Assembly: GCA_030704615.1 (NCBI GenBank)
Contig: CM060731.1
Coordinates: forward strand, 62,496,001-62,560,000
Length of the DNA: 64,000 nucleotides
From: Takakia lepidozioides
Lineage: Eukaryota; Plantae; Bryophyta
Direction: 5' to 3'
Made by a program: the position numbers and the translations under genes. The notes under the pieces were generated by a model. That model saw only the letters and a list, made by a program, of their open reading frames with translations, was not told where the DNA came from and made no database searches. This document shows positions 7,623 through 47,378 of the stretch, piece after piece; positions within the stretch are counted from its first letter, which is position 1, and every line of letters starts with the position of its first letter.

Positions 7623-8243
7623 GTAGATCAATTTTTTCAAATCACTCTGCCCTCGAGACCAAAGGGTAAAATTTCTCTTCGATACATTCAGGCCATCAAA
7701 TGAGACTAGCAGTCTCGGCCTTCCGCACCCTTCTCATGATCATTAAACCTGCAATCTTAGTACTTCAGAGGGCTTGGTACAGACCCACCCTCCCTCAAAA
7801 GGGGTCAAAGTTAAAACCTGGCTTGGCCCCTTTCTCCAAACTGACTCGATTATCTTCTTACATGAGCACAAACTCGATCTGTACAAATTAATCAACAATC
7901 TTTTGACCATCTTTGGCCCTTAACCTCTGCCCTCTGGAAACCCACATCAGAAGGCATAAAAAAGAGATATTGCAGTCTTAATCTCTCCCTCTCTCAAACA
8001 AACACAAGGGTCGGGATCCACAAAACTTGTGTACGTTAAAGACTTGTGAAGAATCAAAGGCCAATGGACTAGTGGATGGAATCAATCATTATGTACAACT
8101 TTGTTATAAAACTTGGGAGGATTGAAAGATACCTCTGAGCTTCACCAACAACGGCAAAATTGTCATCACGCCACATCACCTGAAACACTATCCCCAGGTT
8201 GCCAAAGACCAACTTCTAGAGTCCAATGTTGGCTGGAAATATG

Positions 8244-8431
8244 TGTCGTGCGTATACATATCGCTACACAACTACATCGTTGTCCAAAACCACACAACAC
8301 ATGTGCACACCACACACTAGTATACCACTAGTCCACCACTAGTCCAGCCACTAGTCCAACCACTAGGCTACAACTAGTCAGTCACTAAGCTGCCACTATG
8401 CTGCCCACTATGGCAGTCACTAGTCCACACA
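8244..8431 (-). repeat. LTR segment Y2 (terminal copy of the U3-proximal half)
   Basis: Matches 8762-8926 except ~5 transitions and a 23-bp expansion of CCACTAGT repeats. Confidence 0.92.
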
Positions 8432-8432
8432 A

Positions 8433-8926
8433 TGATAAAGAAGAAGAATACAAGCACAAGCTCATGCGAGCTCACAAAGCTGAAGCATAAACTCATGCAT
8501 ATATAACCTCATCATTCAAATACAAGTCAAGCCAAGTGCACCCCACGCCATAGGGAATCCACACTACGGCGCCATAGCTAGGCGCGGTGAGGCTCAACTC
8601 GAGAAAGATGAGTCTCCCGCGCTTGCCGTGAAGATAACCACTCCAGGGCCTAAATCTGCCTTGACCCCTGGATTGACACTTGGGCCAATCCCAAATGTCA
8701 ATATGTAAAAGCTAGCTATTTCCTACCTAGTTTCACACTAGTGGTAAAATAACTTGACAGCTGTCGTGCGCATACATATCGCTACACAACTACATCGCTG
8801 TCCAAAACCACACAACACATGTGTACACCACACACTAGTATACCACTAGTCCAACCACTAGGCTACAACTAGTCAATCACTAGGCTGCCACTATGCTGCC
8901 CACTATGGCAGTCACTAGTCCACACA
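8433..8926 (-). repeat. Complete 3' LTR (Y1-GC-X2), TG...CA in element sense
   Basis: Begins TGTGTGG just after the PPT and ends CTTTATCA. Contains the palindrome GACAGCTGTC at 8756-8765. Confidence 0.88.
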
Positions 8927-8927
8927 A

Positions 8928-8937
8928 TCGCCCCCCT
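8928..8937 (-). promoter_or_regulatory. Polypurine tract
   Basis: Minus strand reads AGGGGGGCGA-T-TGTGTGG at the internal/LTR boundary. Confidence 0.75.
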
Positions 8938-9186
8938 AGCTGGTGCTTAGGTCCCTCTAAGTCCAGGTAGCCACAAGATGTGATAGTGACCATAGCCTCA
9001 CTAAATCCTCCACCACTATCCCTACTACACTCAAACTCGATAGATCAAGAGGCCGGGTGCAAGAGTTGCCCCATCGTTAGTCGCCGTCTTGCAACCTGTG
9101 AACTTGAGCTTGGGATCTCATGTATTGACTCCTATGAGCTTGGCCTCCCATGTCTTGTTAGGTGCCTCCAGTCGTGTCCACTGCCA

Positions 9187-9335
9187 TTATCCCAAGCAGT
9201 GTGGACACAACCAATCTCCGTCAGGAACCTTCTCAAGAGGTGGTGTCAAGCATCTCATATGCCAACCCCTTGAGCATCGATCACACACCAGCATGGTGGC
9301 TGCTCCTTTGACAGACCCATAGAGCATGCACCTCA
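9187..9335 (-). pseudogene. PHD finger at the integrase C-terminus
   Basis: C-M-L-[Y]...MLVCDRCSRGWHMRCLTPPLEKVPDGDWLCPHC, a C4HC3 pattern with the second Cys mutated to Tyr. Same frame as RNaseH and integrase. Confidence 0.9.
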
Positions 9336-10470
9336 AACCTGCAGGTACCACTGCCAAGTTTGGGTCAACTCTGTCATCGACATTGGGAAGGTGACATGGC
9401 ACACAATTACGCACATAGTCCTTCCAAGTCATGCCATCCCGACCCTCCAAGATCAGGACCCCTGAGGGCAACACCTCTCGAACCCTCAGAATAACATGCC
9501 CTGTAGTAACATCCAGAGTCGTAGGAGCAGTCTGCTACAAATAAACATAGTCACCAGGGCTAAACCTCCGAACCCCAGGACGATATCCTCCACCACGTAT
9601 AGTGGCATACCTCAACGTATCACGGTGCTGCGCAATGGCAAGGTTCTCAAAAGCCATGGGCATGACTTTCTTGAACAACTCTGCACGCTGATCACATGCA
9701 CATACCTACACGTCCGGATCGTCAAGGTTAAGGACTTGAGCAGTGTCCCTACGAATGGCTACAGGCAAATCCGGCTCTCGGCCAAAGAGAAGGAAATATG
9801 GTGAGAAGGAGGCAAGTGATGTTTGTTTGCTGAACCTGTAGCCCATGGCTAACCAAGGAACCTGAAGATCCCAATCTCCTAGGTGTCCCTTCTGCAAACC
9901 ATACTTGCGCAAACCCCTCTTCACCGTCTGAACAACTCTCTCTGCCAAGCCATCGGCCTCAGGATGATCCCGAGAAGTGGTGCGGTGGTCTATCAAGGCT
10001 TTATCACACAAATCCTGAAACTCCCCCAAGAACTCTCTCCCTTGGTCCGTGAGTACCTCAGCTGGAGCACCAAATCGGCTAAGCACACGATCCAAGAATG
10101 CATATGCAGCCCCCTCACTAGCCTTGTCAGGCAATGGAACCAACTCAATCTACTTGGAGAAGTGCTCCACCATCACCAACACATATCTGTGGTGGCGCAT
10201 AGTCAGTGGCAACGGTCCTGCGAAGTCAAGACTCCACTTGTAGCCCAATCCCATGATTGGTAAAGGATGCAATTGTGGTGTAGGGGTGTTGAATGAAGCA
10301 CACACCCTGTCACACACCATGCACCTAGCCACGAACTGTTGCACCTCTGTATGCATACCACGCCACTAATATTGCCCCTGCAGTAAACTGTGAGTGCGTC
10401 GCACTCCAAAATGCCCCAACTTCTCATGAGCATGCCGCACTAACCGTGCACGCTGTGTGGGGTGAGGCAC
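9336..10470 (-). pseudogene. DDE integrase (rve) with HHCC zinc finger, interrupted by stops
   Basis: HEKLGHFG...CMVC; WSLDFAGPLP; VLTDQGREF; HPEADGLAERVVQTVK; FSPYFLLFGREP. Confidence 0.93.
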
Positions 10471-11700
10471 AATCCTCACCCGACCATCCTCCCACACTCG
10501 AAGTAGGTGTATCCTCTCCCACTTGAACCTCTTGGCTCGTTGCAGGATCCGATCCCTCTCCCTGGCAGTCATAGTGGTTGTCGTGTCTCTCGTGTGGAGG
10601 TAGTCCAACACAGCCGAATCCTCATGTATATCTATAGCACCACCTGGCTCATCACTAGCCTCAGGGTCCTCAGACACTCCGTCTACAGTCATCCCTGTTG
10701 TAGGTCCAACCTGACCTCCCGATGCCAAGATACACAAAAATGCAGATGCGTGCCATCCCGGCACCATCTCCTCGTCCGTCTCACCATGCCACCGAGCTCC
10801 AGTGTCATCCTGCTGGCTCATGCATGGATTGCGACTCAATCCATCCGCATCCCGATTGACCAAACCCGGTCGATGCACAACCTGAAAGTCACACTCCTGG
10901 AGTATGAGTGCCCACCGTGCAAGCTTCCCCGTAAGCTTGTCTGACTCCATCAACCACTTGAGTGGCTGGTGATCTGTGACAAGGGTGAAAAGATTGTCGT
11001 ATAGATAGCACCTGAAGTGTGCCACGGCCCACACTGCAGCTAAGCACTCTCCCTCATATGAGCTGTACTTAGCCTCTGCAGCGTTGTTGGAGCGGCTAGC
11101 ATAAGCTACTACGAACTCTCTTCCCTCATCATCCACCTGTGTGAGCACCGCTCCAAGCCCCAACATGCTCCAATCCGTATGCAGCTGAAAAGGACGCCCC
11201 CTGATAGGTCGTCTCAGGATAGGCGTCGAGATCAACCTCGCCTTGAGCTCTTGAAAAGCTCGTTCCTGCTCATCTTCCCACTGCCACTCCTGGTCTACCT
11301 TGGTCAGCTTGGTTAGAGCCTTTGCAATGGTACTAAATCCCTTGACAAACCGTCTATAATAGTTTGCCAACCCCATGAAAGCTCGAACTCGGCTCACATC
11401 CGTGGGGCGTGGAATTTGTGCAATGGCCTCTTGTGGCTAAAGCATACTCTCCACTAGAGAGCTCCACCAAACCTGCCTCCCAGAGATCTTGAGTCCTCAT
11501 CTGAATCAAAAACCTCTCCATGTCACTGTATCTATAGGGTCTCCGAAAGATTGGCGTGTCAGTGGCCAACTCAATACGGCTCTCTTGACCCTTCAGTGCT
11601 CCCAAGTCCTTCAAACTGAAGGCAAAGCAATTCCTGTAAGCCCTCAGGAACCACTGTATACGTCGTCTCTCTCCTCCGGTGACAATGGGTCCAATGTCAG
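10471..11700 (-). pseudogene. RT remnant (catalytic core deleted) plus RT thumb/connection and RNase H
   Basis: RT N-terminus PIFRRPYRYS...GLVELSSGEYA is joined directly (~11432) to AIAQIPRPTD-VRAFMGLANYYRRFV. No YxDD. RNase H motifs LHTDWS, VVAYASR, YEGECLAAVWA, LVTDHQPL, DADGLSR. Confidence 0.9.
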
Positions 11701-12086
11701 GCTCCCAATTGTCCTCCATAAACTGCAACCTTAAGTCCAGTGGGCTTAGAGGTAGAGGACGCGTCCAGTGGTTGCTATGTTGCAACCTCTTGAGCAATAC
11801 TCCCTACCTGCTCAGTCAGTGACAAGGCCTCATCCTGCCCCATCATCTCATCCTCAAGGACTTCCTCCACCCGAGAAAAATCCCCAACCTCATCTTTCAC
11901 CGCCACCTTGGCTGCCAACTCCCTTTGAACCTCGAGCACCTCCCACGTGTGCCATGGATGCCTGCACCCCATGGTCCTCACATGCTCGCCCCCACTCACT
12001 GCCTGTACCGTCTCGGTAGGCAGAGAGACCATCGAGGGAAGTGTACTCCGCACTCTACGTCGCTCAGCCATAGCCAAGCTGATAAT

Positions 12087-13022
12087 CTAGGTCAAGCAAT
12101 TGAGATCCATTGTTTGCCCCAACACCTGACGACATGATGCCTCAGAAAGAGACGACACCGCCGTGGTACCAGTGGGAAAACCCATTGCCCGCTCACACTC
12201 GTCAGCATTAGGCTCTACTAATTGCTGCAACTGAGCATCCCACAGGAGGCCAGGTCCACTATCCCGGAAAGCATGTGATCCTGGGAAGCTGAGCAGTGTA
12301 GGTAATGCTGCTCGTGGTTGACCCACCTTGTTGACCACTGCCAAAGGCGAACGGTCATCGTGTCTAACACGCTGAGACTGCCTCCCTGTGTCCAGAATGC
12401 TATCCACTGTGAGATGTGCTGGCCGCTGCACCCCATCAAATGCACGCTTGAGCAGTGCGGGTGGCATCAAATTAGTCCACCATAGCCGTGGACGATGAGC
12501 CCATGACCCCACTGTAGCTGCATCTAGCAACACTGCTGACCCAAGCCACGACCGGACTTGATGCACACTGGCCATCACCCTGGCCCGAGAATCGCCCATC
12601 AGTGGCACATTCTCCAAGATGTATGCTGGAGATACAGCTTGATGAATCTGCAAGTGGGGCAAAACCCGCACCATCTCCCAAAACAGACCTGACATTGAGT
12701 CTCGCAATCCATTGTCATGCCCGGCTGATGAATGCCCTTGGCAGGGCCAACCTGCCACTACCAGATCAATGGAGCCAACCCGCTCCAAATCCTGCGCCCC
12801 CAGCAACGAAATGTCTGCTGGCAAGGCCTGTTGATATCCACGAACTGCAGACACCGGCAACAATTCAGGGTACCGCTGCACCAACTGAGCAACATGGCGA
12901 AGTGAAATGCGTCGTGTTGTCTCATCCCTCTCCACATACAGGTAACACCGAACTCGTACACTTGCCTGTAACACAGCAGCCAATCCGGTGCTGATCCCGC
13001 CAAACTAGTCCAGAAGACAAAT
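12087..13022 (-). pseudogene. DNMT3-like C5 DNA cytosine methyltransferase domain inside the retrotransposon polyprotein
   Basis: Motif I ICLLD*FGGISTG (upstream of the listed ORF, same frame); II YVERD; IV DLVVAGWPCQGHS; VI YILENV; VIII AHRPRLWWTNL; IX ECERAMGFP; X RQVLGQTM. Confidence 0.92.
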
Positions 13023-13307
13023 GTCTTCATCCGGATACTACCACACAATAGGTGTGGTGTCCAATGGAGACAACTGAGGTGGTCCTGGTGCAATCCCCGC
13101 ACTCTCCTCCTCTCCTGACGGTACAAAAGCCTCCACCCAGGCTTGTTGCACCCGTCGATCAGTATCCCGCTACAAATCCTTGTTCGTGCCCCACAATGGA
13201 GTCTGAGCAACCATGGTAGGCAACTCCGCCATACCATACATGTTCTCCTACTCTCCAAGAGGTGGCACATCCTCTGAATGAGCGTTGCCCTCAAGCAACT
13301 CTCCAGG

Positions 13308-14231
13308 TCAATTCACTACCGCTGTGAATGCTGATAGTATCGGCATCTTGCCTCGTTGGGCAACCGCAACTCCTCCTATGAACGTCACAGGGAGCTGCAC
13401 ACGCCGGCCCTCCCCTGACTGCCATCCAGGCCTATAGGAAGCTGACTCCTCCCAAAAATCTAGGGTGAAGCCCATGGGGTACAACACTGCCCCACCAACT
13501 AGGACATCGTACGAGACCGCGTCTGTCACAATGGCCTTGGTTCGCATTACTGAGCCATCTGTAGGGTGATCCGGCCGTAGTCTGATAGCCAATTCACGCC
13601 GTGTCATGCCCTGAGCCTGCTCCGATCCTCCCAAAGCCGTCTGTATCTGGAAAGGACAAGGCTCCATATCTGCCTCCGTGAGGCCCAAGCCTGCAATATC
13701 AGCTCTGCCTAACATCAATGGCTGAGCTCCCGAGTCCAACAAGACCCGCAGTGGCCGGTACCTCTTGCCTTTCGGTCCACTCAAACAGAAAATGCCATCC
13801 TGGTTGCCAGGTGTAACCATGGCGCGCTCAATGGCTGGACTAGCTGGCAGCTCCATCAACCTGGCAGCTACAGCTTGCCATGGCGCCACCGTGGCAGTCT
13901 GCACCCTCAAATCCGAGGATCCCTCCGGCACTACACCTCCCACTATCTCCGCAGAAGATGAAGTAACCTCCCCACTCTCACAGAGTGTAGCTGCCAGCCT
14001 GAACACCTCAGCTGGTCTAACCCCCGGCGTCGCAATCATGGTAGCCGAGAACAATGGAGCCTGGTACACAGATGTGGCCGCTCCTAGCAGCACACTAGCT
14101 GCCGTAGCCTTGGCAATACTAGGTAGTGGTGCTACCCGTGTAGCTCTCCCCAATGGCATAGTAACCTCCACCTCGGTAACAGTCGGGCGAGAACTAGGTG
14201 CCATGGATGGCGTCGACACTGTCTCCGCCAA
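13308..14231 (-). pseudogene. Retropepsin aspartic protease region
   Basis: RVLLDSGA active site and YDVLVGG C-terminal motif. Confidence 0.88.
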
Positions 14232-14276
14232 TGTGAATGACTGAGGAAGCCTAGTCTGACGACTTGCCTCCCCATG

Positions 14277-15941
14277 CTATGGATCCAACTCCACCTCTGC
14301 ACCTCGTGGCTCAGGAACTCGTGCTGCTCCTCGAGTCACGGCTGCAGCAAACTCCACCTGCACTAGTGGTAGTGCTGCTCCACACATGAATCCCATGCCT
14401 CCCATATCTCCTCCCTCAGGAGTAGGAGGTGGACCATCCGGCCTTAGAGCCGGTACCACCTGAGCTGTAGCCATGGCAGCGAGCCTCTGCTCTAGCTGCT
14501 GAAGCCGGTTGGCCATGCCTTGGTCAACACCCTGACCTCCGCGTCCTTGGCCATGTTGAGCTTGCCCTTGGCCTGCACCTCGTGGTTGGCCACCTCGTCC
14601 TCTCTGGGCTGCTCCACCTCGCCCCCGGCCACCATTGTTTCCTTGGAACTGGCCTGGGCGCAACTCAGGATGCAAACCATAACACTGGGCCTCTCCATGC
14701 CCGTGCTTGCCACAATGCCCACACTGCAACTGTGCAGGCTGTGCATGTGCCGGCCCTTTGCCTCCCTCTGGGCAATCCTTCTTGACATGGGGTCCTCCAC
14801 ATGTCCAGCACACCACATCCGCCCGTTGTTGGCCAGCAAATGAAAGGAGAGACCCCTGCATCTGAGGTCCTCTCTGCCCTTCCCTGAGCTTCACCTGAGC
14901 CCCCTTGTTGCCTTGAGCACGTTGAGGTAGTGGTTGGCTAGGAGCACCACTACCCCGTGGCGTCTCCTTAGCAAATCGCACCATGACCACTCGTTCCTCC
15001 ACCATGTTGAGCTCTATCCGCTCTGCCAGCAAAAACACATTTGCTAAGGTGGGTTGGGCCGCTTGTAGGAGAGTTGCATCCCGCACCCTTCTCCTCAGCT
15101 CTTTGTCCAATATCCCATACCAGAATTACACTGCCTGAGCTTCTGTAACCCCTTGGGTTACATTTATCAAGCGCCTCATGCGAGTGAAAGCCTCCCTCAA
15201 GCTCTCGGTCGGCTTCCGTTGGAACTCTTGCAAGCTCCGCAACTTCTCTGTCCTCACCCTTTGGTAGTTCCCTCTCAACTCTTCGAAGAACTCCACAACA
15301 GGGTTGAAGGCAGGCACGGGTACTAGTGCTGGTGCGGTAGTGGCTTGGGTGGACGTCGTAGCTACTGTACCACCAGTCCCACTAGTCCCACTGCTACTTG
15401 CTGAAGCTGCCGGTGCAGCGGCAGGTGTAGCCACTGCCCTCGTGGCTCTAGTGCCCCTAGTGATGGAGACATAATCGGGTGACCAGTACATTGTCCACTC
15501 CTCGATCTCAACCTCATGCCCCCGCCTGAACTCATGGTAATCATCCATAGGCGGCCCCTCAAGGTGCTGAAACAACCCCTTCCATGCCATGAAAGGCGTA
15601 AATAGTTGTGGAGTGCGCATTTGCTGCAAATCACACCAACTATCAAACTCTTGGATAAAATCATCCAACTCGATGGTGCCCACCGCCCTAGAGTACCTTC
15701 GTGGCCCCTTGGTAGCTCCATACATCTCCTCCATTGTGTCCCACAACAATGGCAAAGAAACAACTTGCACCGCCGGTATGAGTCCTCCTGATTCACAATC
15801 CGAATCAGAACCTTCCGTAGAAGACACATGAGGTGAAGGTGGCCTAAACCGCACACCTCGTCTTGTGTACCCACTAGTATTGCTAGTGCTCGAACCGGCA
15901 CTGTCCCCAGCAACTAGTGGCACCTCCGTGTTGACACTCAA
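14277..15941 (-). pseudogene. Gag with two zinc knuckles (in-frame stop at 15126-15128)
   Basis: FQRKPTESLREAFTRM homology region; CWTCGGPHVKKDC and CGHCGKHGHGEAQC; RGG-rich tail. Confidence 0.88.
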
Positions 15942-16639
15942 CCGATCATGAACATGTCCCTAACCCCCTCTCCACAAGGTAACCGGGTAGAGAACCTGTT
16001 GCGGCTTATGGTTTGGAATACTAAGTTCCTAACATAGCCTACACCTGTACCTACATCCACCGCAAGTACTCCTATGGTTGGCTGGTCATCACCTCCAACC
16101 TCACCACAGGAGAAACAATGATGGTCTGGCTGGTCATCACCCCAGCCTCACCATCGACAGCATGCTCTAGGACTGGCCGGTGATCAAATCCGGACCAATC
16201 ACCTATAAAAAACAAGCGCCCACACAAAACTAGCATGGCACACAGTCAAGCATGCAGGTATGGAGGGGATCCAAACACAAGAAATCAGAACGACAACTCC
16301 CCCACACCAAAAACAACTCCACGGTGTGGCTCTTGCAAGGACACCCCAGCCCAAACCCGGACTGACTCTTGCCTCCACCTACGGAAAGGTCTTGGCCTAA
16401 TGAGAGGGTGGAAACTACGAGGAAGAGAAGCTAAAGCAATGCCTAACCCCAGCATGCCCTCATCCCAACACTCTTCCTCTCCTCTCTTCCCTCACTTGCA
16501 TGACCATGGGAATATCATGAAGATACTCCTCAAACCGCCCTCCACGAGCTTCAAAATTCGGCCTTCAAGACCACATACCAGTCCTTAGGCAGTCCACCAG
16601 TGCCTCCACAAGTCAGCACATGCCATCCACAGCTCAACA

Positions 16640-17385
16640 CGGGTCACCACAGACCAGCAGAGGCCCACACAGCTCACAGGCCACAGCCTGTCACAGCCCT
16701 ACACAGGTCACAGGGTCACAGCCCCACAGGCCGCAGCCTGTCACAGCCCATCACAACCCCAAAGGCCACAGGCACAGCCTGTCACAGCCCTACAAAGGTC
16801 ACAGGGTCACAGCCCCAAAGGCCACAGCCTATCACAGCCCCTCACAGCCCCATAGGCCCACAGGCACAGCCTGTCACAGCCCGACACAGGTCACAGGGGT
16901 CACAGCCCCAAAGGCCACAGCCCCTCACAGCCCGTCACAGCCCCACAGGCCACTAGGCACAGCCTGTCACAGCCCCTCACAGCCCCTCACAGCTCGCCAC
17001 AGCCTGTCACAGCCTGTCACAGCTTGCCACAGCCCATCACAGCCCATCACAGCCTGTCATAGCCCCACAGGGCACAGGGCACAGCCTGTCAAGCCCCTCA
17101 CAGCCCGTCACAACCCCACAGGCCACTGGGCACAGCCTGTCACAGCCCGCCACAACCTGTCACAGCCCCTCATAGCCCGTCACAGCCCCAAAGGCCCGTG
17201 ACAGCCCCGAAGGCCACTGGCGCAGCCCGTGACAGCCCCAAAAGGCCACCGGCACAGCCCCTCACAGCCCATCACAACCCCCAAGGCCACCGGCGCAGCC
17301 CGTCACAGGCCCTCACAGCCCATCACAGCCCCGAAGGCCACTGGCACAGGCCCTCACAGGCCTTCACAGCCTGTCACAGCCCCAT
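16640..17385. repeat. Degenerate CACAGCC/TCACAGCC minisatellite in the element 5' leader
   Basis: Dozens of ACAGCC units with ~11-bp sub-periodicity. Confidence 0.9.
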
Positions 17386-17824
17386 CCATGGCCGCTCAGG
17401 CAGTTTAGCCATTTCTCCAAGGGGTTTAGCCACGCCAAGCTAGGGTTTGTGTCTCTTGGACTCTAGGCTTCTTTCCACCGAGCTATGGCGGCTGTGAGGA
17501 AATCAGCAAGGTATTCTTGCTCTTTCGGCTCCCACACACCACCATAGTAGCCCTAAGCCATGAGGTGGTTGCCACAAACCAAGCCTTCTTTCTCACTTAG
17601 CCTCCCCAAACACGCCACTAAACTCAATGGCAAACAACCAAGCCTTACTGGTTTCCAGCCCTTGTGAGCACTCATTCAAGCGTTTCCCTTGGCTATAGCA
17701 TCTGTCTTAGAGCCTATTCCAGCCCCCTACACCTGTCACTTCAAGAGCCATGCTCTATCTAGGCTTGAGGTTGAAACCCCAACTCAGAACACGCTCTACA
17801 AGTATCGGACTGTCACATAAGAGC

Positions 17825-18230
17825 AGATCAGCCCCTTACCTTCTCTTCTAGTTCTCTAAAGCTTGAAAACAAAAGCCCAATGGACTGTAGGCATGCTCCA
17901 CACATGCCCCACTCTCACCACCAGAGAATCAGCCCCTTTGCTTTCTTTCTTGCACCCACCAACCTGAAAATACACGCTTCAGCGGGCTGGAAGCATGCTC
18001 CACACATGCCCTACAGGGAAACCAGCCCCTTCCTTCCTTTCTTGCACTCCCAAACCTGAAAGTACAAGCCTTCAACAGGCTGAAAGCATGCTCCACACAT
18101 GCATTGCTCTCACATAAGGGAAGTCAGCCCTTCCTTCTTCCTTGCTTGCCCTCCAAGCTTGAAGATGGTATGAGCTGAATACATGCTCCACACATGCAAC
18201 CTCTTCACACAAGAGGTATCAGCCACCTAT
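17825..18230. repeat. Four degenerate ~95-bp tandem repeats in the element leader
   Basis: (G)CATGCTCCACACATGC at 17891, 17993, 18086 and 18181, each followed by CAGCC(C) and a pyrimidine tract. Confidence 0.8.
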
Positions 18231-18900
18231 CTTGGCTCCTTGGCTCCTTGATGCTCTCTAAGACAAGACTAAGCACTCCACAGCCTTTGCCAAGCTCCCG
18301 AAACCCTAAGGCTTACATTTCCAGCCACAAGACACTCCTTTTGTGGTGCAAGAGCTCTTCTTCCAAGCTCTGAAACCCTAGGTGCACATTCCATGGCCTT
18401 GCCGCACCTCTTAGCTCCTGTTCCAGCCTTGCTCTTGCCATGACAAGAGCCCTCTCAATGCTGAAGCTCGAGATTGAAACCCACTCTCAACATACTCCAC
18501 AAAGTGCACTGATTTGCCCCAAGCCAAATCAGCCATTTCGCTTGGTCTTGCAATCCTTCACACAATGAAAGCTCGCATTCCCAAGTCCAGTTCTCAGCTT
18601 TGCCACCAAAGCCAATATAACCTGCTCTTGACTGGTCCTCTTCCCAATCGTGCTTGCTCATGCATGTACACAATCTGAAACCATCAAGGTGCTCTGGAAT
18701 TACCTGCAGTATGGTGCTTTCATCTCTGAAGCTGAAGATCGAATGCCAAGGTTTACCACCTCGTAACCCACATCACCTCCGCTTCTAACAACCAAGAGCT
18801 CCACGGTGCTCCTTGCATAACAACCTGGTTTCTCTCATTCTCAAGCAAAAACCACAAGTGCTACAACTAACTCGTATCTGGCACTCATAGATACGAGCTG

Positions 18901-18912
18901 ATCTTTCTCGAG
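18901..18912 (-). promoter_or_regulatory. Putative self-priming primer-binding site
   Basis: CTCGAGAAAGAT immediately follows the LTR-ending CA. It is complementary to (A)TCTTTCTCGAG inside the LTR (19078-19088; 8598-8609). It does not start with TGG. Confidence 0.65.
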
Positions 18913-19239
18913 TGATAAAGAAGAAGAATACAAGCACAAGCTCATGCGAGCTCACAAAGCTGAAGCATAAACTCATGCATATATAACCTCATCACTCAAA
19001 TACAAGTCAAGCCAAGTGCACCCCACGCCATGGGGAATCCACACTACGGCGCCATAGCTAGGCGCGGTGAGGCTCAACTCGAGAAAGAAGAGCCTCCCAC
19101 GCTTGCCGTGAAGATAACCACTCCAGGGCCTAAATCTGCCTTGATCCCTGGATTGACACTTGGGCCAATCCCAAATGTCAATATGTAAAAGCTAGCTATT
19201 TCCTAGCTAGTTTCACACTAATGGTAAAATAACTTGACA
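18913..19239 (-). repeat. 5' partial LTR (segment X1)
   Basis: 327 bp with about 8 differences from 8433-8759. Starts TGTCAAG and ends TTTATCA. Confidence 0.93.
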
Positions 19240-20615
19240 TATGAGCAAAGCCTTGATGTCAACTAAGATTCTAAAACTTATATCCTTCTTTCTACAAAGC
19301 CAACTCCACAAAGAGGTTGCAGCAAGGAGCGGGAACGCGTGCCATTTGTTACAGAACCTTAAGATCATGTCCAGATCCTTCTGGCTCTGGGGCAGTACAA
19401 AAAGAAAAGGGCTTCTATCCCATGTTTAACAGTACGTTAGCGAGAGTGGAAATATCATAGCCGTGCTCAAACTTTGCATCGTAGGGCAGCAGAACTGGAA
19501 CTCACATGTGGAATGAGAGATTGTGGAGAGTGTTCGATTGAGTATCACGCTGATTCTCCGGAAGGAGAGATAAAGTAGCGGGTGAACCTAAGATGCAAGA
19601 ATAAGGGTTATGAGAACATTGGCTAATCATGTGATGACTATCATGCTGCAACTCAGGAAGGAAGGTCATTGGAACGCAAGTGAAAGCAGGAACTGACCTT
19701 GTCCAGCTGCACTTCTACTAACTATGGTCCAGTATAAGGAGTCATATGGCCTCATGTGTCCTTCATCTTTGAAGGTATGTAATGAACAACCAAATGAACA
19801 ACTGAATCGGGGTGTGCTATATTTCTTTCTCAATATTTACTACTGCTCTTTATGTTGCTAGAAATCTCATGGACCTGTATATGAGAGGGTGATATGTGGC
19901 CGATGTGTTAGAAAAGCAACTGCGGAAATGGGTGGGAAGTACTGCGGCCAGACCACGACGCCCCCTATCTCTGCAGGGAAGAACATCTCGATTGGGTTTC
20001 CAAGCAGGCGGGCTTACCTAATATATTTCATGTTAATGTTAAGAGTAGTTTTATACTACTCAATGGCTTTTTGAATGGACATTGTCAATTTTTCTACATC
20101 TTCAATGAGAGAGAAACTGAAGCAAGATGTTGATCCCTGGCAAAGTTGAAGGCGAACTGCAGATATATGTGGCGCAAGACACCATAAAAAATGGTGGGAA
20201 CATGCCTGTAGCTTAACAGGATACACTAGCTGACTTTCTACTATCTCCACCACGGACCCCATGCTCAGACGAGTTGCAGGTATGAGCATTGCATGCATGC
20301 ATATTTCTTTCTACCTCTGATCGATTCAATTGTGTCATCATTCATTAACTGTGTCAGCTGTATCATGTCATCATTCCTGCAAAATTACAGTCAGTCATGG
20401 TGCTCAGTAGTTACTAATCAACACTTAAAGGGCAGGATGGCTCCTGAAGTCTGAATACAACGACATATAGATCTGCCGGTTTCTTTGCCAAAATGGTACA
20501 ACACCACAAAATTTCTCTAGGGCAGGGACGGCAAGTACCTAGACCATGCATAAGAGTAAGAGGTATTTAATATGGGGTCTACAGGAGGGTGTACCTGGAA
20601 CAAGTGCAACCTGGT

Positions 20616-24423: not shown

Positions 24424-27400
24424 TTGCAAAGAACCATTGTAGAGAGCAAAGAAAATCTAAGTGCAGAAGTGGAGAGGAGGGGAGATCTATCTGTAGAGCA
24501 GCTTGGTCCTTTTGCCCGTCTTCACATGCTTCCAGTTGATATCCTTATCGAACTCAGGAGAAGCGGAAGAGGAGGGCCCTGTGGTGTTGCCATTGAGGGG
24601 GGATTTCACCAGGCCAGACACAACCTCCCGCTCCCGTGCATGTGCAGATGACGTCGTTTCTGCCCCAAGTGCCCCTGAAGGGACTGATGAGGGTATGCTG
24701 CCGCTCTGGGTGTTTGACGATGCCTGCATGCACTTTTTCCCAAGCCAGTTTAGCTGCTATGGTAAGATCAAAAAATATGTTTGTGATTGTAGCAGTGGCC
24801 GTGGAATTGACATTGTCCAAGGACCAGGAACATCTAGCTTTCCATAGATGCCATAGAGTGTATCCCCTCAAGGCTTCATAAACTGGACAGTCATTTGCTA
24901 TGGATTTGGTTGTCCTGTCATAGTTGAGAAGTATTGCCACCTGGTTGGAGGGGAACACTTCCCATGAAGTACTATAGAACGAGTCAATAAATGGCCATGA
25001 CAGACGGGGTGCCTGACAATGAGTGAGGCAGTGTTCCAGTGTCTCGATGGTCCCTGATTGACAGCATGAGCAAAGCAGGGCCTCCGGGAAATTGAGAAAT
25101 TGCTCGACCTTGAGCACCCTGTTTGCTACCTGCCAGAGGAAGGCGCTAATTTTTGCGGGCTTAGATTTTTCCAAATGAGTTTCCAGATGTCTCCCCAATT
25201 TTCGTCGTGGAAGTATTCATGCTGCCATCTTGCATTCCATTTGCCTGGAAGGGATTTGGCATTTGCAAGGGCCCTATATGCCTTCTTGGCCGAGTAGGAG
25301 AAGAATCCTAATTTGGTGTCCCCAAATTTCCACTGCCACTCTCCAGGGTCTATTTGCAGATCCTGGAGAGGCATGCCACCAATCCAGGCAAAGGAGGCAG
25401 AGAGAAGCCAAGGAAAAGGGGGTATTCCCACTGGGGCAGAAGGGTTGAAATCTTTGGCAGGGGAGGACCACAGGCAGATTCTTGCCGGCAAGGCATCTAT
25501 GCTGCAGAGACTTTGGGTAGTGTTTGAGAAGAGTGTCAAGAACCCTGAAAAGGTATCTACTTTGAATGCATAGCCAGTTAATATATCATGTTGCACCTCT
25601 GTAATGTACATTATCAAGTAGGGTTTTCCAAAAGCCACAACCCAGTTATGAGGAGAATGCAGGGGCTGACCATTTCGCATGATCAGTTTCCAGGAGTCTA
25701 GGATATTTGTGACAATGGAGTCGATGCCGGATGCCAGCCTTCTTATACCCAGGGCCGCTTGAAGGGATTCAGTGGAGCTTTCCCATAGGTGGGCAATCTG
25801 AGAGTATCCTCTGGTTTCCCACTTTGCCCACCTCTTGGCCTGAGTGCGCTGCAAGGGGGATGGAGTAGCCTCATTGAGAAAGAGGTGTTGCCTCATTGTC
25901 TCTTGGAAAGATGTAGGTTCTGATTTGAGTAGGAAGGGTCTAAATTTATTCCATGCTTCCCAGATTGATACCCAAAGGGGTGAACCAATGGATTTGTTGT
26001 CTAAACCCTTGAGTTATCCACCTCATAGAGGGTCTCCATTGGGTGTGACTTAGTGGGGAGCTGAGTGAGATAGCCTGTCCGACCAGCAATTTCCACCAAC
26101 CCCCCTCCGGCCCAAGGAACCTTGGTAACCATTTTCCCAAGAGTGCCAGGATTTGAGTTGCTGGATCTAGCACTCCCAGTCCTCCTTTTTTCTTTGGAAG
26201 GCAGATTTGCTTCCATGTGACCTGTGGCCTCTTGTTATGGGTGGTTGATTGGGCACCCCAAATGAAGTTCCGGATGCACTTCTTAACCTCTCCTAGAAAT
26301 TCAGGGTCAGGTTACCAGATGGCTGCGAAATACCAGATCCCTGCCTGGAGGATCTGATTTGCAATGAGAGCCCTACTTGTTATGGTTAGAAAACGTGAGC
26401 CCCAGTATGCCAGCTGTCTTTTAAGAGCTGTCAGCGTAGGGCCCATTCTCTGCTTGTCAGTGAGGTTGATTCCGAAGGTGTGGCCCAAGAGAGTTGTGGG
26501 TTCATCCTCCTTCAGCCAGAACAGTCCAGAGTCATTTCCCCATGTGGGATACCGAGCCTATGGTGGATTTGGATATATCCCCAACCAGAAGGGCTTTGGT
26601 TTTAGACCAATTCACTCTGAAGCCGGAAACTTTGCAAAATTGCCCCAGTGTTTCTTCTGCAGCCTGAAGCGTAGATGGAGTGGCATCCAACAGCAAGCAG
26701 GTGTCGTCAACAAACATTGAGTCCTTTACTTGGATCGAGATTTGTGCCACGGGGTTCAGTATGTTCAACCCTTGAATGGACAAATTTCTATCAAACAGGT
26801 AACCCAGGGCGTCTGCTACGAAGAGGAACAGGAATGGTGCAAGTGGACAACCTTGTCTCACTGATCGGTGAAGCTGAAAGGGCTTGGAGAGATGACCGTT
26901 AACTGTTACCCTGCTGGTTGAGTGTTGCAGTAGGATCATGACCCAATTACGGAAGGTCTGGGGCATCCCCACCTTAGCCAGAATGTCAAGAAGAAAGCCC
27001 CAATCTACTTTATCGAATGCCTTTTCAAAATCCAATAACCAGAGTGCCAGAGCCTGTCCTGATGCCATTGCAAAGTAAGCTGCTTCATGAGCTAGCAGTA
27101 CATTATCTAGGATGTATCTCCCCTTAATGAAACCCGTCTGACCCGTTCTAATCAGTGCGGGAAGGAGAGGCTGCAGACGGAGTGCCAGAGCCTTAGCTAT
27201 TATTTTGTAGGTCACATTCAAAAGAGTGATTGGTCTATAGTTGTTAATGTCTGCGCTGTCTCCCTTTTTGAACAACAGAGTTATTACCCCTTGGGCCATA
27301 GGGGAAGGCATGATCCCGTCGGATTTAATCCTATTGGCCATAGAGCAGAAGTCCTGGGAAATGTGAGGTCACATTGCCTTGTAGAACTCCACTGGCATGC

Positions 27401-28860
27401 CGCCAATGCCCGGGGCCTTTTTGTTATTTATTTTGTCTAGGGCCTTCCCGAGCTCAAGAAGAGTAAAGTCAGCTTCCAGATCTTGAGACAGGTGAGGCTG
27501 AAGTTTACAGGGCACAGCCGAGAGCACTTCATCCAAATAATCACGATGATGGGGTTCCTTCGGATCCGCTTGGAAGAGTTTGGCAAAGTGATTGAACGAT
27601 GTCTCACTCATATCTTAGGGTCGGAGGATTTAGTGCCCTGGTGAACCCTCTAGAGAGATCTTTTAAGTTTGACCTTCTCGAAGAAGTATTTAGACATCTT
27701 TTCTCCTTTTGCTAACCAGTTGATGCCCGCTTGCATACGCATTTTTTGCTCTTGCTTGAGCTGGAACATGTCAAGGTTTTGGCGGGCTTCCAGGTAGGTT
27801 TGGAAGGTATGGTCATCGCATGTGTTGTTTTCTATTTGTTTCTGACTTACATTCAGGCACTTTTTGAGGGCCAGAACGCGTTCCTTTTGGGCAGCTGATA
27901 TATCTCTACTCATGTCCTGACTTGCCTTACATGCTGCTTGAAGCTTGAGGGTAAATTTGATAATAGGGCAAGATATGTCGTTGGCTGTCTGTTTCCATGC
28001 TAGTTCCAGGCCTAACTTGAAAGAGGGGATGAGGAGATGTGAAGTGTTGAGCTTATAGATACCTCTACCTCTCCTACTTTTACAGGGCATGGAGAGAGAG
28101 GCTGAAACAATGGCATGATCGAACCCATGAGCAATGGGTTCTTGCGGGTGACGGCTTGCTCCATTAGAGATTGAGAGTGAGATATATATTCTATCCAATG
28201 TGGCCATGCAGAGGTCCTGGAGGGTGCGGTTGTTTGTCCAAGTGAAGAAAGGGTTATTCCTTCCCGGGGGGCTAGGATTTGAGTCAATTTCCGAAAGGCT
28301 ATGTGATTGGATGAGAGAGAGCCAAGAGACCTCCTCATCAAGGTTAAGATGATGAGATGCCAAACCTCGTCTATCTTGGTTGTTGTCTACCATATTGAAA
28401 TCTCCTGCCAGAATCCTGGAGTGGGCTACTGGTTGCGAGGACATTTTATGGTTGATGAGAGCCCAGAGTTCAGCATGTTCTACGTAGGAGTTCGGAGCGT
28501 AAATGTTAACAAAGCCAAGAGGGTCAGGTTGGCTGGGAAGTTTGAGAGAGCAAAACTGGACTCGACCTGGCTCCCAAACTTCCTCCCTGATGATGAACTG
28601 AAATAAGGAGGGTGCCAGGAGGATGGCAGTACCCCCCCTTGAGCCGACACGGGAAGGTTTCCAGAGGGCAGCAGATGCTGGCCAGAGTTGGTCAGAGAGG
28701 TTAGAGATTTTTGCTGGCAGAGCTTGTGTTCTTGGATGAACACGATAGTCTCCGTTCGTTGGAGAGGTGCCAACCAGGTGCGTAGCTTGATTTTTTTGTG
28801 TTTTCCTGGTCAGAGCCAATCCCCCTAATGTTCCACGAGTGAATACTAACCTGCATCTTG
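24424..28860 (-). pseudogene. LINE ORF2 (endonuclease, reverse transcriptase, zf-RVT), frameshifted
   Basis: SWNIRG, VFIQEH, VNIYAPN, LAGDFN, LDRIY, FDH; NYRPITLLN, LDFEKAFD, VRQGCPLAP, FVDD; CSCCQSGTIETLEHC. Confidence 0.92.
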
Positions 28861-29512
28861 AGGTATAGACAGGCTGAGAGGGAATTTCTCAATTGATGGC
28901 CTGGTGTGAGAGTATTGGAACTTAGTTCTTTTGTCGGAGGGAAGAGGGGATGAGACCCATTTGTAGTTGACAGGTGCTACTGGTGTGGGGTTACTAAGCT
29001 GTATGAACAGGACTTGGGTGAAAGGGTTGAGCGGTTGGTGATGGTGGCAGTCGTTGGGAAGGGTCAAGAAACGAGCCGAGGATATTGAGTCTGTATAGAT
29101 TTTCGTGGGTGCCTCCGTGAGTTGGAGGAAGAACTCGGAAAGGAGGATAAGGCCAAGGGAAGTTGGCGTTTCTGGAGATAGGGTACCAACAGACATTTCT
29201 AAAGCTAAGTCGACGAGATTGACAGGGACCGCTATAGATGGTAAGACTTTGCTTGTTGAGCTGGCATCAGATTTAAGACACACAATTTTACACCTATTTT
29301 GCCAGGTAGAGAAGGGAGAGAACACCAAGAAGGGAATGGGGTGAAGGTAGAGGCTTACATGAAGAAGGGGTGACTGAGTGGGAAGGGGCGTGGGCGAGGG
29401 CAGTGAAAGCACATGCTGGACAGGGTTGCTTCTCAGCTGACGGGTGCTGCGATTCCGAGAGAGGAGATTTGTTAGGCTTGTCGTGGACATGTGTGCGCGA
29501 GCTGGGCTCCAT

Positions 29513-31450
29513 TTACGCTTCTGGAGATAAGGGAGGGTCGGGGCCGATGGGGTTGTAAGAAGGCTGTTGCTGATCCGGGAGCCTTCGAAGCTCGATGGCC
29601 TCGTTCTGTTCACGAACCTCGGCTTCCGGCGTCGCGTGGAGGAGAGTGAATGAAGAATGGATGGTGTCTCTTGCTCGAATGGTTGCCAAGTTGGTGGTGG
29701 GGGGCTGGTCGAAGGGGGGGAGATGAATCCAGAGGCCCTTGCCTTGGGGGTGATTTCCGAGCAGCATTTTTTCCTCGATTAATGCTAGAATTTGGGTTGA
29801 TGGAGTAAGATCCGAAACCAGGCCAGGATACTGTTCAACGTAGGCTCCCCAGGTGATGACTGTGTGGGCCTGCAGTGAATAGTTGGGTGAGTACTTCAGA
29901 ATAATGGACTGAATTCTCTCCCTAAGAGTGGGGATGGGGTCCCCATCGATAGGGCAGGTAGCCATGAAGTATCTCACGTCCGCCGTTGTGATCCAGTGTG
30001 ACTCCAGAGCGATCCCTTGTGGGGCAATGGCAAGGAGTGCTGGTTGTGGTGTCCTTTGAAAAATGAGGGGAGTGATGCATGTTGCCTTTGGTGCAGACCC
30101 ATGTAACAATTGCGAGCAGCTCCTCAGGGCCAAACTTGGAAATGACCGGAGCGTTGCACAGTTCCTAGCAATAACAGGGTTGATTGCAATTGTAGTTTTT
30201 CCTTCCTTTGGTGTAGTCCCTGATGATATCTGCCTTGTGTGGAAGTGTGCCGGGGGTTTGCTAGAGCTAGCCTTCGGGATAGAGTTGTGGGCTTGATCGG
30301 ATCTGGGGCGGGGTGGTGGGGCAACTCCAGCCATTTGTGGATTTGGTGCTAATTCAGTAGCCGCCGCTTCTGCCCTCATGGGGTCCACATGGTCTTTAAG
30401 CCTCTTTCCGGGGGGAGAGGAAGAAGATTGAGGTAGAAAGGAGTCCCAATTTCCTTGGTTGGGAAAGAGAGATCATTGAGTCTTTCTGCTTCTTTGTGGA
30501 CTGCAGCTGCTGGGGCTGCCGCATCAGGGTCTTTTCGATTCGACTGGAATTGTTTTGATTTGAGATTGTGAGCCAGAGCATGTGCCTGAGAGCTGGGGGA
30601 GCCGTGCATGGAGGTTCTCTTGTGCTTAGCTTTTGGGCAGTTGACCCTCAGATGGCCGGTCTGGCCGCAAGTGTAGCAAGCGGAAGATGAAGTGTCTTCA
30701 GTGATTTTTACTGAGAAATAATTACCTTCCCTGTCAATTGGCAGACGAATAAATTCCGGCAGTATTGCATCAGCTGGCATTGAGACCACAATCTTTGCAA
30801 AACCCGTATCATGAATTTTCGATGCAATTGTTACTCCTCTCCACGCTGGATGTTTTTTGAGAGCCTTTGTGCACATCTCTGGATCAAAGATTGAGAGGCA
30901 GCCTAAGAAAACTCCAAAGTGATTGCCTATATCAGGTAGGCAGAAGAGATACTGATCCGGGATATATGGAAGAGCTAGCTAAAATCCTGGGGGCCCATAC
31001 TATCCCGTTACGGTTGCCCAGTGCCGCTGACCAGGGGAAAATATTAACGTTGAATCCCAGGAGGTGTGGGTTCAATGAGAGGGCTCTATCCGCTGCTTCT
31101 TTTGTACCAAGCAGGATGGAATAGAAGCCTTTGCCCCTGGAGTGGCAAAACTGCTGCTTTATGTCCCCTGATCCCCCCAAGTGTTTGATTGCCCATTCTC
31201 TTGCTATATCCCTGTCCACTTTTTTTCCGGGGAAGTGCAGTAGCACTCCCAATCCCAGTATTTCGGTGACCATGTCATTGACGAAATCAAGGTCCACATC
31301 AACCAGTGGATCATTCTCGGACATTGCAAGCTGCAGAGCCGAGGGTGCTTCCGATCGCTCCGGCATGGTGTCTGCTGCCCCTTCCATGATTCCATTGAAG
31401 CTGCTTTCCACACTGTGAGAGTTGCCAATGAACAGGCCCTCCAGCCTCAA
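29513..31450 (-). pseudogene. LINE ORF1 (DUF4283-like region, CCHC knuckle, extra C-terminal region), frameshifted
   Basis: GVLLHFPGK..REWAIKHLGG..GKGFYSILL; CYTCGQTGHLRVNC; collinear with 35662-37342. Confidence 0.8.
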
Positions 31451-45245: not shown

Positions 45246-45899
45246 AGATTGGTGGTACTTTCAACATCTTTAGGGCTCTGCCCCTTTTACAATTAAAAAT
45301 AACTTGAATGTACTCTAACTATATATAAACAAGTAACATGGTTTTGCATTTTTGATAAATAATAATCCTAAATAATAATAATCTCCTCAACTAGTTCACG
45401 AAGGAGTTCACCTCCTGCTGAATGGTTTCTCATCCTACTGGATGGTATTTCTTTTCATATTTGTCTCTTGGCTCGTCCTAACCATGTTGGTGTGTATGCT
45501 TTATGGGCCCACGGGGATTTTATTTTTTTCCCCATCATCAATAAATATCGAGGGCTTCCATCCTTTTCAAAAATAATAAAAATAATAATGATAATAATAA
45601 TATGATCTATCATATATATTCAAGACTGGATACAAACATTCCGATCACATATTTGTAATGTTATGTTTTATATTTATCGTTATATAATCATGCATTTTAG
45701 TTACACATATATTCAAAGTAAGAAACAATATGATTTTTTGAAATGGATTGATTGACAGCCATATCGATGGCGGGCTATTTGTTCATATATGATAATACAA
45801 ATGACCGCATTGGATGGATGGATAGTCCATCTTGTGACCATATTACACAACGAAATGGGAATCCAAAAGGAATAAACTCTCAGGGGAACCACAAGCAAC

Positions 45900-47378
45900 T
45901 TGGTGGATAACAGCCTTATGCAGGTCTGGTTAGCACAAGGGCCAGTAGAGGGCAAAGCACCACGAAAGCTCACCCAAAGCGAGATGAATGAGCTCAAGTT
46001 GCAGATGCAAAACATTGCCACAACTACTATAGACAATGTCTATAGTAGGATAGCAGAGTTACAAGAGGATGTAGACGGACTGCAGACTCAAGTGGAAGAC
46101 CTCACTTCAAACATCGACAAAAGAGTCTATATCCCTCAGGAACAGCTAATGGCTTCTTATTTACAAGCCAGAACTTTGGCTTTTCAGTCTTCACAGGAGG
46201 TGCATGAGATGCCAATGATACAAGAGCCAGTACCACCACCACCACAACAAGTCACTGTACCAGTAGCTGAACCTGTGGTTACTACAACCACACCACAGCC
46301 ACCACAGCCGGAGGTATGGGGCAATGCCGCTTTTAACCCACCTAAAACTCCAGCTGCAAGGGAGTACAGTATGGCTATGATTATGCCCTTCAACCAAATT
46401 CCCATCATGTTGGATTTGGCTTGGAAAGAATTTAGTCCTCCGCAGTCATTCGCACATTACTACCAAATCATGCGTATTTGGCTGCCAGTGGCAACTAGGA
46501 CTAAAGTTCTTCCGAACAATCGACATGTTGAAGATCATCACTTTGCACAATACTGGCACGAGGCAGGTACCATGTTGAGGGAATTGATTGCTTTCCAGGT
46601 TGTACATGGACTCATTTATACCAAGACCAAGGAGGTAGCAAGTATTGTCATGGGATGCGGGTTATACTACGCTGCTTGTTTTCTGGTACGTTACCACATT
46701 GAGCAACAAAAGATGCAAACACGCTTTCTGAGTTATTCCAGTGGAGATCATTGGGTATTACCTTCGGTGCCACCTCATATGTATCTATATGACCCAAAAG
46801 TTATGATGCAAAAGGATTCTCAAATTCGTTCATGGTTTCAAGCGGTCTGGAACCATTTGTCAACACAGAAATTCGGCATTGATGACATTTTCTATAAGGG
46901 ACATGTGGCATGGAAATACTTACACGCTGCACCAGTAATTGGTACCCCACTCACCTGGACAGACAATGAGCTCAGTGTCTACACCAATTTTGCTGTTCAG
47001 CGGTTACACCAAGTTGTAAAATACAAACTTCCAGACATGGTAGGACAGCATTGTATGCCCCAGATGCTTCCACAAAAAGTTCGAAAATTAAAACACCTGA
47101 GAGGCGATGAGGATTCTGATACAACTGTTTCTTCACCGAATTCTTTTGACATGGGAGAAGACTATGCAGTTCAGATGGCAGAGAAGAAGCGACGGGGGTC
47201 TCCTATGCCGGAAAGGTTACCTCGATATCAGCCTCCAGATGGCCTCACTTATCCAGGTAGTGATCAACCATCTCCGTCAACCACAGACAGACCTCAGGCT
47301 CGTACACACAGTCCGCCACGAAACTCTCAACGTCAAAAAGGTGCTCACTCACAAAGGTTTGCTAGTCGAAATCAGTAA
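45900..47378 (+). CDS. Hypothetical 492-aa protein (coiled coil, Pro-rich linker, unknown globular domain) at the 3' end of an LTR element
   Basis: Uninterrupted intronless ORF; first in-frame ATG at 45918; stop ~20 bp before a PPT. No family recognised. Confidence 0.65.
   Translation: MVDNSLMQVWLAQGPVEGKAPRKLTQSEMNELKLQMQNIATTTIDNVYSRIAELQEDVDGLQTQVEDLTSNIDKRVYIPQEQLMASYLQARTLAFQSSQEVHEMPMIQEPVPPPPQQVTVPVAEPVVTTTTPQPPQPEVWGNAAFNPPKTPAAREYSMAMIMPFNQIPIMLDLAWKEFSPPQSFAHYYQIMRIWLPVATRTKVLPNNRHVEDHHFAQYWHEAGTMLRELIAFQVVHGLIYTKTKEVASIVMGCGLYYAACFLVRYHIEQQKMQTRFLSYSSGDHWVLPSVPPHMYLYDPKVMMQKDSQIRSWFQAVWNHLSTQKFGIDDIFYKGHVAWKYLHAAPVIGTPLTWTDNELSVYTNFAVQRLHQVVKYKLPDMVGQHCMPQMLPQKVRKLKHLRGDEDSDTTVSSPNSFDMGEDYAVQMAEKKRRGSPMPERLPRYQPPDGLTYPGSDQPSPSTTDRPQARTHSPPRNSQRQKGAHSQRFASRNQ

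Follow-up and report, generated by a model that had tools for sequence, protein, structure and literature searches.

A decayed Ty3/gypsy element of Takakia lepidozioides with a DNMT3-type methyltransferase domain in its Gag-protease frame, a predicted readthrough stop and circle-type ends

DNA methylation is the main defence of plants against transposons, and an element that keeps a DNMT3 of its own under selection, as is the case in liverworts, mosses and the host of the sequence described here, therefore asks what the parasite gains from the enzyme. The gain was left open in the accessible parts of the account of such an element in the alga Klebsormidium nitens (PMC5890265), where the activity of the algal enzyme was not demonstrable. 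The window analysed here is a stretch of 64,000 nucleotides from the moss Takakia lepidozioides (contig CM060731.1), and all positions given below are window positions. The reading somewhat favoured in the following, which is drawn from sequence comparison, is that of a gypsy element of the KnitGypsy-Dnmt3 lineage in which the DNMT would end the Gag-protease frame, pol would be made by readthrough of a UAG stop, and packaged DNMT would methylate the element's own cDNA before integration.

The methyltransferase domain is part of a whole, decayed element (Table 1) with the features of Ty3/gypsy, namely PR-RT-RH-IN order, a DDE integrase, TG..CA ends, a target duplication and a polypurine tract. 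Two complete matching terminal LTRs are absent from the window element; its repeats are split and permuted (A ... B-A-B), in the order A1, internal region, polypurine tract, B1, 2-bp spacer, A2 and B2. Split direct repeats are also known from elements of the DIRS order such as PAT and Ngaro. A tyrosine recombinase gave no match in the nine ORF pieces scanned, rve and H2C2 being found instead, and by its domains the element is not of the tyrosine-recombinase type. Split repeats were also found in L044, L045, L046 and L054. The target duplication is clear in the window element, L044 and L046, and not clear in L045 and L054; CATA is common to the window copy and L046, GGTC was found in L044, and these cases are too few to speak of a target preference.

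Table 1. Features of the element, in the order of its minus strand
Feature	Position	Strand	Remarks
Whole decayed Ty3/gypsy element	8244..19239	-	split direct repeats A1-internal-B1-A2-B2; termini TGTC...GACA
Target-site duplication, left copy	19240..19243	-	4 bp, CATA
Repeat A1	18913..19239	-	327 nt; 8 differences to A2
Predicted transcript 5' end and self-primer	19078..19088	-	complementary to primer-binding site; role by analogy with the Tf1/Tj1 mechanism
Non-tRNA primer-binding site, predicted	18901..18912	-	directly after A1; match of 11 nt in A1 and 12 nt in A2; 1 of 2000 shuffles as long
Array of ~10-bp repeats	16682..17370	-	in long 5' leader
Gag capsid region	15000..15734	-	PF03732 match under the cut-off, E 0.0027; start placed by alignment to Marchantia ORF1
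Two CCHC zinc knuckles	14682..14810	-	
Aspartic protease	13401..13799	-	LLDSGA at 13742-13725; weak Pfam match, E 0.004
DNMT3-like C5 cytosine methyltransferase domain	12060..13037	-	premature stops 13007 and 12089 in window copy
Conserved ORF1 stop in readthrough context	11769..11777	-	TAG CAA CCA; stop itself 11777-11775
Reverse transcriptase, N-terminal remnant	11432..11713	-	out of frame with ORF1 in window copy
RNase H	10894..11280	-	PF17917 E 3e-35
DDE integrase	9712..10467	-	H2C2 and rve
C-terminal PHD finger	9190..9360	-	PF00628 E 5e-10
Polypurine tract	8931..8937	-	in front of B1
Repeat B1	8762..8928	-	
Palindromic junction between B1 and A2	8756..8765	-	GACA-GC-TGTC; predicted integrase attachment site
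Repeat A2	8433..8759	-	
Repeat B2	8244..8433	-	23 nt longer than B1, 4 substitutions
Target-site duplication, right copy	8240..8243	-	4 bp, CATA

The window copy is dead: eight premature stops interrupt the frame of ORF1 and four interrupt pol, the frame changes ahead of RT, and about 549 nt are missing at 11431/11432, with which most of RT including the catalytic motif is lost. The family is abundant in the host: in two sequencing runs of a single sample, 19,213 and 23,958 contigs map to 2.2 kb, figures which are not a copy number. Lack of the domain in other copies, which the first-pass annotation had named as an argument against an integral DNMT, was not found; family contigs cover all 30 bins across the domain.

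The motifs of C5-methyltransferases are arranged in canonical order between 13004 and 12105 of the minus strand: FGGISTG (13004-12984), YVE (12938), GWPCQG (12752-12735), ENV (12614-12606), HRPRLWW (12497-12477), ERAMGFP (12194-12174) and RQVLG (12131). The circular permutation of the DRM type (VI-X before I-V) was not seen in the window domain, and the motif list and non-DRM order given in the first-pass annotation are borne out. The stretch 12087..13022, which had been given for the domain, covers it incompletely: the domain starts upstream of the ORF given, at about 13037, and a stop lies inside motif I. An HMM search, which had been proposed as a check, yielded PF00145 with an E value of 6.9e-12, above the cut-off. 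Regarding solved structures, the best match of the window domain was DNMT3A (1.1e-7), followed by DNMT3B, HhaI (5e-4) and DRM (0.014-0.06), and a 21-sequence profile gave 1.9e-22 for DNMT3A, 1e-12 to 3e-9 for DRM and 2e-7 for HhaI. The predicted model of the domain of L026, an uninterrupted relative, had a mean pLDDT of 91.4, and all 31 Foldseek matches listed for this model were DNMT3A/B/C (top E 1.1e-17). A likeness to DNMT3 had been read from the motif wording; DNMT3A/B also ranked first in structure, profile and fold comparisons. Only generic, mostly phage DNA-methylase clusters were matched in the ESM Atlas, and the 30 short matches of viral contigs to phage methyltransferases (E 3e-11 or weaker) were used as outgroup only. 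DUF3444 gave no Pfam match in the window pieces or in 18 relatives. By similarity ranking, fold and the published tree the window domain is DNMT3-type; by the lack of DUF3444 and by its unpermuted motif order it is neither a host DNMT3 nor a DRM.

Gag, zinc knuckles, protease and DNMT share one frame, which aligns without introns to residues 1-1243 of Marchantia Mp4g09160 (53.6%), in agreement with the earlier view of an intronless integral domain in frame with Gag and protease. The closest named proteins are those of Calypogeia fissa (74%), Marchantia polymorpha (up to 73%) and Sphagnum (46-68%), and the Klebsormidium protein KFL_009030040 showed an identity of 44% over 82% of the query; 209 clusters of a 50%-cluster library matched at E 1e-30 or better. 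Among these matches, which included no host sequence, the further objection anticipated in the first-pass annotation, that the domain is nearly identical to a host gene, was not borne out. Among 269 proteins, 69 have the order of the window element (PR-DNMT-RT), 89 have RH-DNMT-IN and 111 are unplaced; the DNMT occupies the same place in elements of liverworts, mosses and algae. In a quick DNMT tree, which took 85 of the 269 proteins, 13 loci and 8 phage rows and was made without bootstrap and without host DNMT3 rows, the window domain groups with Calypogeia, Marchantia and Sphagnum (17 rows, SH-aLRT 100), with Klebsormidium in an open basal fork. A quick tree was likewise made of the integrases (6 type-A proteins, 23 of the 63 type-B proteins, 12 loci), without bootstrap and without DNMT-free gypsy rows; all PR-DNMT-RT elements including that of Klebsormidium form one clade in it (SH-aLRT 97), within which the window element, Marchantia, Sphagnum, L026 and L031 form a subclade (SH-aLRT 99). 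As judged from its sequence, the window element is a land-plant member of the KnitGypsy-Dnmt3 lineage.

A second layout, RT-RNaseH-DNMT-integrase-PHD, was seen in P0044-P0055, P0093, P0106, P0126 and others. The DNMT domains of this layout form one clade in the quick DNMT tree (SH-aLRT 99), which includes proteins of the chlorophyte Hariotina reticulata, so that the same DNMT lineage appears at two positions in pol and reaches the chlorophytes. A second, distant family (L040-L080; identity 35-40%), with the catalytic motifs GWECQG and ENT and without the readthrough stop, keeps the split repeats, the CACGACA end and the self-priming site. Five Marchantia gene models of 1278-1281 aa (P0003, P0270, P0271, P0277 and P0278), two of them on the V chromosome and annotated as hypothetical, are uninterrupted Gag-protease-DNMT ORFs which end 90 residues past the same motif. 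A further family member, P0064, carries the annotation of a DNA cytosine methyltransferase from a bacterial MAG (Obscuribacterales); it shares 94% identity with L026 and is probably a eukaryotic contamination of the bacterial bin.

The domain had been described as part of one open gag-pol polyprotein. The Gag-protease-DNMT portion of that frame stands, and a conserved stop separates it from RT. In the window this stop has a context that fits the type I (tobamovirus-like) readthrough consensus, with the downstream ORF in frame in relatives; the tobamovirus consensus is given as UAG CAR YYA in the part of PMC3542737 consulted. Of 68 loci with enough downstream DNA, those at 45% identity or more, the window included, have TAR CAR YYN in the DNMT-RT linker in 34 of 39 cases, as against 0 of 29 more distant loci, and the same context was found at only 10 of 633 decay stops. 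The strict context CARYYA is present in 7 of the 34 loci; the other 27 belong to one moss-associated family with CAA CCC or CAA CCT, the last base of the context having been relaxed after inspection of these 27. Seven loci have TAA, and the 34 loci amount to about five independent lineages. L026 has a single stop, TAG CAG TTA, between 1369 and 1048 open codons. Regarding other stops of the window copy, 13040 and 12089 are read otherwise in more than 99% of the family contig depth, and 11777-11775 does not appear among 40 of the 41 places listed as differing in at least 45% of this depth. Of the type-A proteins, 30 of 53 end 60-200 residues past the DNMT, and five Marchantia gene models end at the same residue. 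Structure of the RNA behind the stop was inconsistent, with z from -0.01 (window) to -3.5 against mononucleotide shuffles. Readthrough of the UAG is predicted with good confidence to yield RT-integrase; the main product is likely Gag-protease-DNMT, with RT-RH-IN-PHD as a minor extension made by readthrough. The stop is absent from the Klebsormidium element and the L040-L080 family, which both have the DNMT, so that a dose at the level of Gag is not required across the whole lineage.

A programmed +1 frameshift before RT, which was considered from the window alone, was rejected, as RT is in frame in the relatives and the window copy differs from many family contigs by one base in length near 11720.

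In the mechanism proposed here, the leaky UAG would cause Gag-protease-DNMT to be made in bulk and RT and integrase to arise only by readthrough, and the DNMT, packaged at the level of Gag, would methylate the cDNA of the element before integration. The chances are about even that cDNA or circle is the main target of the enzyme and that new copies are pre-methylated, the likeliest benefit being passage through host surveillance or a damping of their own expression. A DNMT that is active in the nucleus on integrated copies or host chromatin, for silencing of itself or of competitors, and not on cDNA in the particle, appears unlikely. The amount of enzyme made in bulk with Gag would far exceed the need of a single cDNA, the family is present in the host in great abundance, and host plant DNMT3 is described in the accessible part of PMC6453930 as methylating heterochromatic transposable elements de novo, all of which would suit such a role, whereas the fusion to Gag favours packaging, the window domain lacks DUF3444 or another targeting module, and the methylome of K. 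nitens is reported as plant-like despite these elements in the portion of PMC5890265 seen. CpG depletion (o/e 0.34-0.70 in the elements) fits self-methylation and host methylation alike.

The predicted readthrough has to be weighed against splicing or re-initiation around the stop, by which pol could be made instead. In three gene models of Marchantia (Mp6g11220, MARPO_0084s0073 and MARPO_0091s0058) DNMT is joined to RT and the linker region is skipped, as would be the case with splicing, and the moss-associated family has an ATG after CAA CCC, at which re-initiation could occur. However, the stretches skipped differ among the three models, which is usual for automatic predictors faced with an internal stop, and no ATG is found at that place in the window, L026 or L031. 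DNMT and RT are in the same frame in 24 of 25 testable loci, across the conserved stop, and the CAR YY- context is kept across lineages with near-saturated synonymous sites, both of which argue against these routes; they are judged improbable, and readthrough is retained as the predicted source of pol.

The catalytic Cys was found in 170 of 174 near-full domains (the remaining four have gaps), the Glu of ENV in all 174, and the two Arg of motif VIII in 169 and 171, respectively. The putative DNMT is quite probably active on DNA. A role as nucleic-acid-binding or RNA-modifying module could explain the presence of E in place of P before the catalytic Cys in 64 of the 174 domains and the failure of KnitGypsy-Dnmt3 to methylate in yeast, a result which the authors call inconclusive in the accessible text of PMC5890265. 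Such a role is most improbable in view of the near invariance of Cys, Glu and both Arg, of sequence and fold, which are nearest to DNMT3 and far from DNMT2, and of the Symbiodinium retrotransposon Dnmt3 domains, reported to methylate CG de novo (PMC5890265, in part).

Comparison of dN/dS among copies, as suggested in the first-pass annotation, gave 0.08-0.12 for the DNMT in five between-family or intact pairs with a finite value, and similar values for the protease (0.11-0.13); dS was saturated for the window versus L003, and for Gag in the window versus L016. Among decayed copies within the family the value was 0.53 for the DNMT, no lower than for other domains, as is expected from the death of copies. 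By these ratios the DNMT domain is under purifying selection (dN/dS about 0.1); neutral evolution with loss of the PC and ENV motifs, the last of the objections foreseen, is at odds with them and with the retained catalytic residues. That the DNMT is a captured host gene and a neutral passenger in the window copy only, as the decay of this copy might suggest, is hardly credible in view of its position in liverwort, moss and algal elements, the full coverage by family contigs, the dN/dS value, the lack of an intron and of DUF3444, and the number of matching clusters.

With respect to replication, no tRNA primer site was found after A1. In eight of eight elements, with three different sequences, the 9-16 nt that directly follow repeat A have their complement 150-170 nt within this repeat, a match equalled by at most 5 of 2000 shuffles. 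Pairing of the primer-binding site with a site in the 5' repeat is known from the self-priming of Tf1 and Tj1 (PMC4600332 and PMC6317226, in part), and self-priming of the Tf1 type is very probable here on the strength of these complementary sites. In 13 sequences a junction GACA-nn-TGTC lies downstream of the DNMT, at a distance of 4.3-5.3 kb; upstream, where 29 loci extend for at least 4.5 kb, it was never seen.

Since B comes after the polypurine tract and A lies before the primer site, B+A is the working LTR. The palindromic junction suggests that the integrated form corresponds to a circle with two LTRs, one of which has been opened at its B|A junction. Reverse transcription would give a [B+A]-internal-[B+A] cDNA of the normal type, which would be closed to the two-LTR circle; integrase would then make staggered cuts after CA on both strands of the B|A junction, and the opened form would be A-internal-B-A-B; cuts across the 2-bp spacer would leave ends like processed retroviral ends. 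Closure of the cDNA to the circle with staggered opening at B|A is considered moderately probable from the arrangement of the repeats. Comparable junctions are found in bacterial IS elements. A DDE integrase acting on a circle junction, if true, would be unusual among LTR elements.

The PHD finger of a relative matches the CHD4, PHF12, PHF21A and KDM5 types; the type present in the window element is presumed to bind unmodified H3 tails, and it may, as a tentative proposal, steer integration to chromatin carrying them. CG is retained in the terminal CACGACA of otherwise CpG-poor elements. A wider scenario, offered as speculation and itself unlikely in its entirety, is that of an ancient gypsy lineage of chlorophytes, charophytes and land plants that primes itself and enters the genome from a two-LTR circle, its DDE integrase cleaving an internal palindrome, with a land-plant branch that would have evolved a leaky stop loading DNMT3 at the level of Gag; the enzyme would methylate the circle, possibly including the CG in CACGACA, and so govern the silencing state or the opening site of new copies.

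Elsewhere in the window, PLS-type PPR genes or fragments were found at 52158-53680 (minus strand), 56127-58262 (plus strand) and 63855-64000; the PPR gene scanned carries an E motif of the type of RNA-editing factors, which indicates a land-plant host. The C-terminal 113 aa of the neighbouring PPR protein matched proteins of Ginkgo, liverworts, mosses, lycophytes and angiosperms at no more than 41-58%, which likewise points to land plants in general. A decayed non-LTR element with endonuclease and RT domains occupies 25129-30472 (minus strand). An inverted repeat of about 700 bp with 96-100% complementarity (59775-60478 and 61409-62115) lies around and extends into a LINE-type RT fragment (60572-61852), and the region 59775-62195 is possibly an inverted LINE insertion. 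An array of CACAGCC-type repeats of 9-10 bp (47463-47916), which resembles the array in the leader of the element, directly follows a frame of 500 codons without Pfam match (45876-47375, plus strand), and the two together are possibly another mobile element.

Marchantia polymorpha, a genetic model with uninterrupted Gag-protease-DNMT gene models, makes activity, specificity and readthrough testable in a land plant; its copies may distort the number of methyltransferases counted for the host. Owing to their split ends such elements escape finders of paired LTRs, which may explain their absence from plant classifications. The first-pass annotation knew of no DNMT-bearing retrotransposon in embryophytes. 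No land-plant report of a KnitGypsy-Dnmt3-type element, nor any report of readthrough or self-priming for this lineage, was found in the largely open-access literature searched, where the name of the element or similar wording occurs in three papers only, and in this respect the remark holds; the lineage itself had already been described in Klebsormidium (PMC5890265, in part). The word 'methyltransferase' is absent from the text of PMC10508981, PMC13468544 and PMC9985172, the accessible parts of PMC12344493, PMC5784723 and bioRxiv 2021.11.30.470311 hold nothing on land-plant DNMT elements, and two later papers, as far as their text was available, write 'streptophytes' when citing PMC5890265.

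Among systems that combine a retroelement with a C5 methyltransferase, SymbioDIRS-Dnmt3, SymbioLINE-Dnmt and EpiLTRs differ from the window element in belonging to other element classes or in carrying a DNMT4-sister domain, and are independent captures in dinoflagellates, Euglena and Cymbomonas (PMC5890265 and bioRxiv 10.64898/2026.05.21.726589, both in part); SymbioDIRS-Dnmt3 was shown to methylate CG de novo (PMC5890265, same parts). The host plant enzymes PpDNMT3a/b have a DNMT3-type catalytic domain with canonical motif order, as in the window, but carry a C-terminal DUF3444, whereas the window domain has none and lies in the Gag frame (PMC6453930, in part). The layout A1-ORFs-B1-A2-B2 is that of DIRS-order elements (peer-review file of PMC5890265, in part), from which the window element differs by its DDE integrase, TG..CA ends and 4-bp target duplication. 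In Tf1/Sushi, Tcn1 and Tj1 of Schizosaccharomyces japonicus the primer-binding site likewise has its complement within the 5' repeat, and Tj1 also needs a stop between gag and pol (PMC6317226 and PMC4600332, in part); in the same sources, unlike in the window element, these elements have ordinary paired LTRs and no DNMT, and the stop of Tj1 follows Gag, whereas that of the window element follows Gag-protease-DNMT.

The nearest system is KnitGypsy-Dnmt3 of K. nitens, described by de Mendoza et al. 2018 (PMC5890265, accessible parts) as an intronless Dnmt3 in pol with DIRS-like repeats and a Ka/Ks below 0.2, and presented there as acquired in the K. nitens lineage. Both have an intronless, unpermuted Dnmt3-type domain in a gypsy element of the order PR-DNMT-RT-RH-IN (KFL_009030040), DIRS-like split repeats, purifying selection and a place in a single integrase clade. 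They differ in that the window element resides in a land plant and has a readthrough-type stop between DNMT and RT, whereas the Klebsormidium gene model continues into RT; the same parts of the account make no mention of readthrough, self-priming, a palindromic junction or a PHD finger. As read from the sequences, the additions to the known KnitGypsy-Dnmt3 kind are its range in land plants, the predicted readthrough stop and the circle-type ends.
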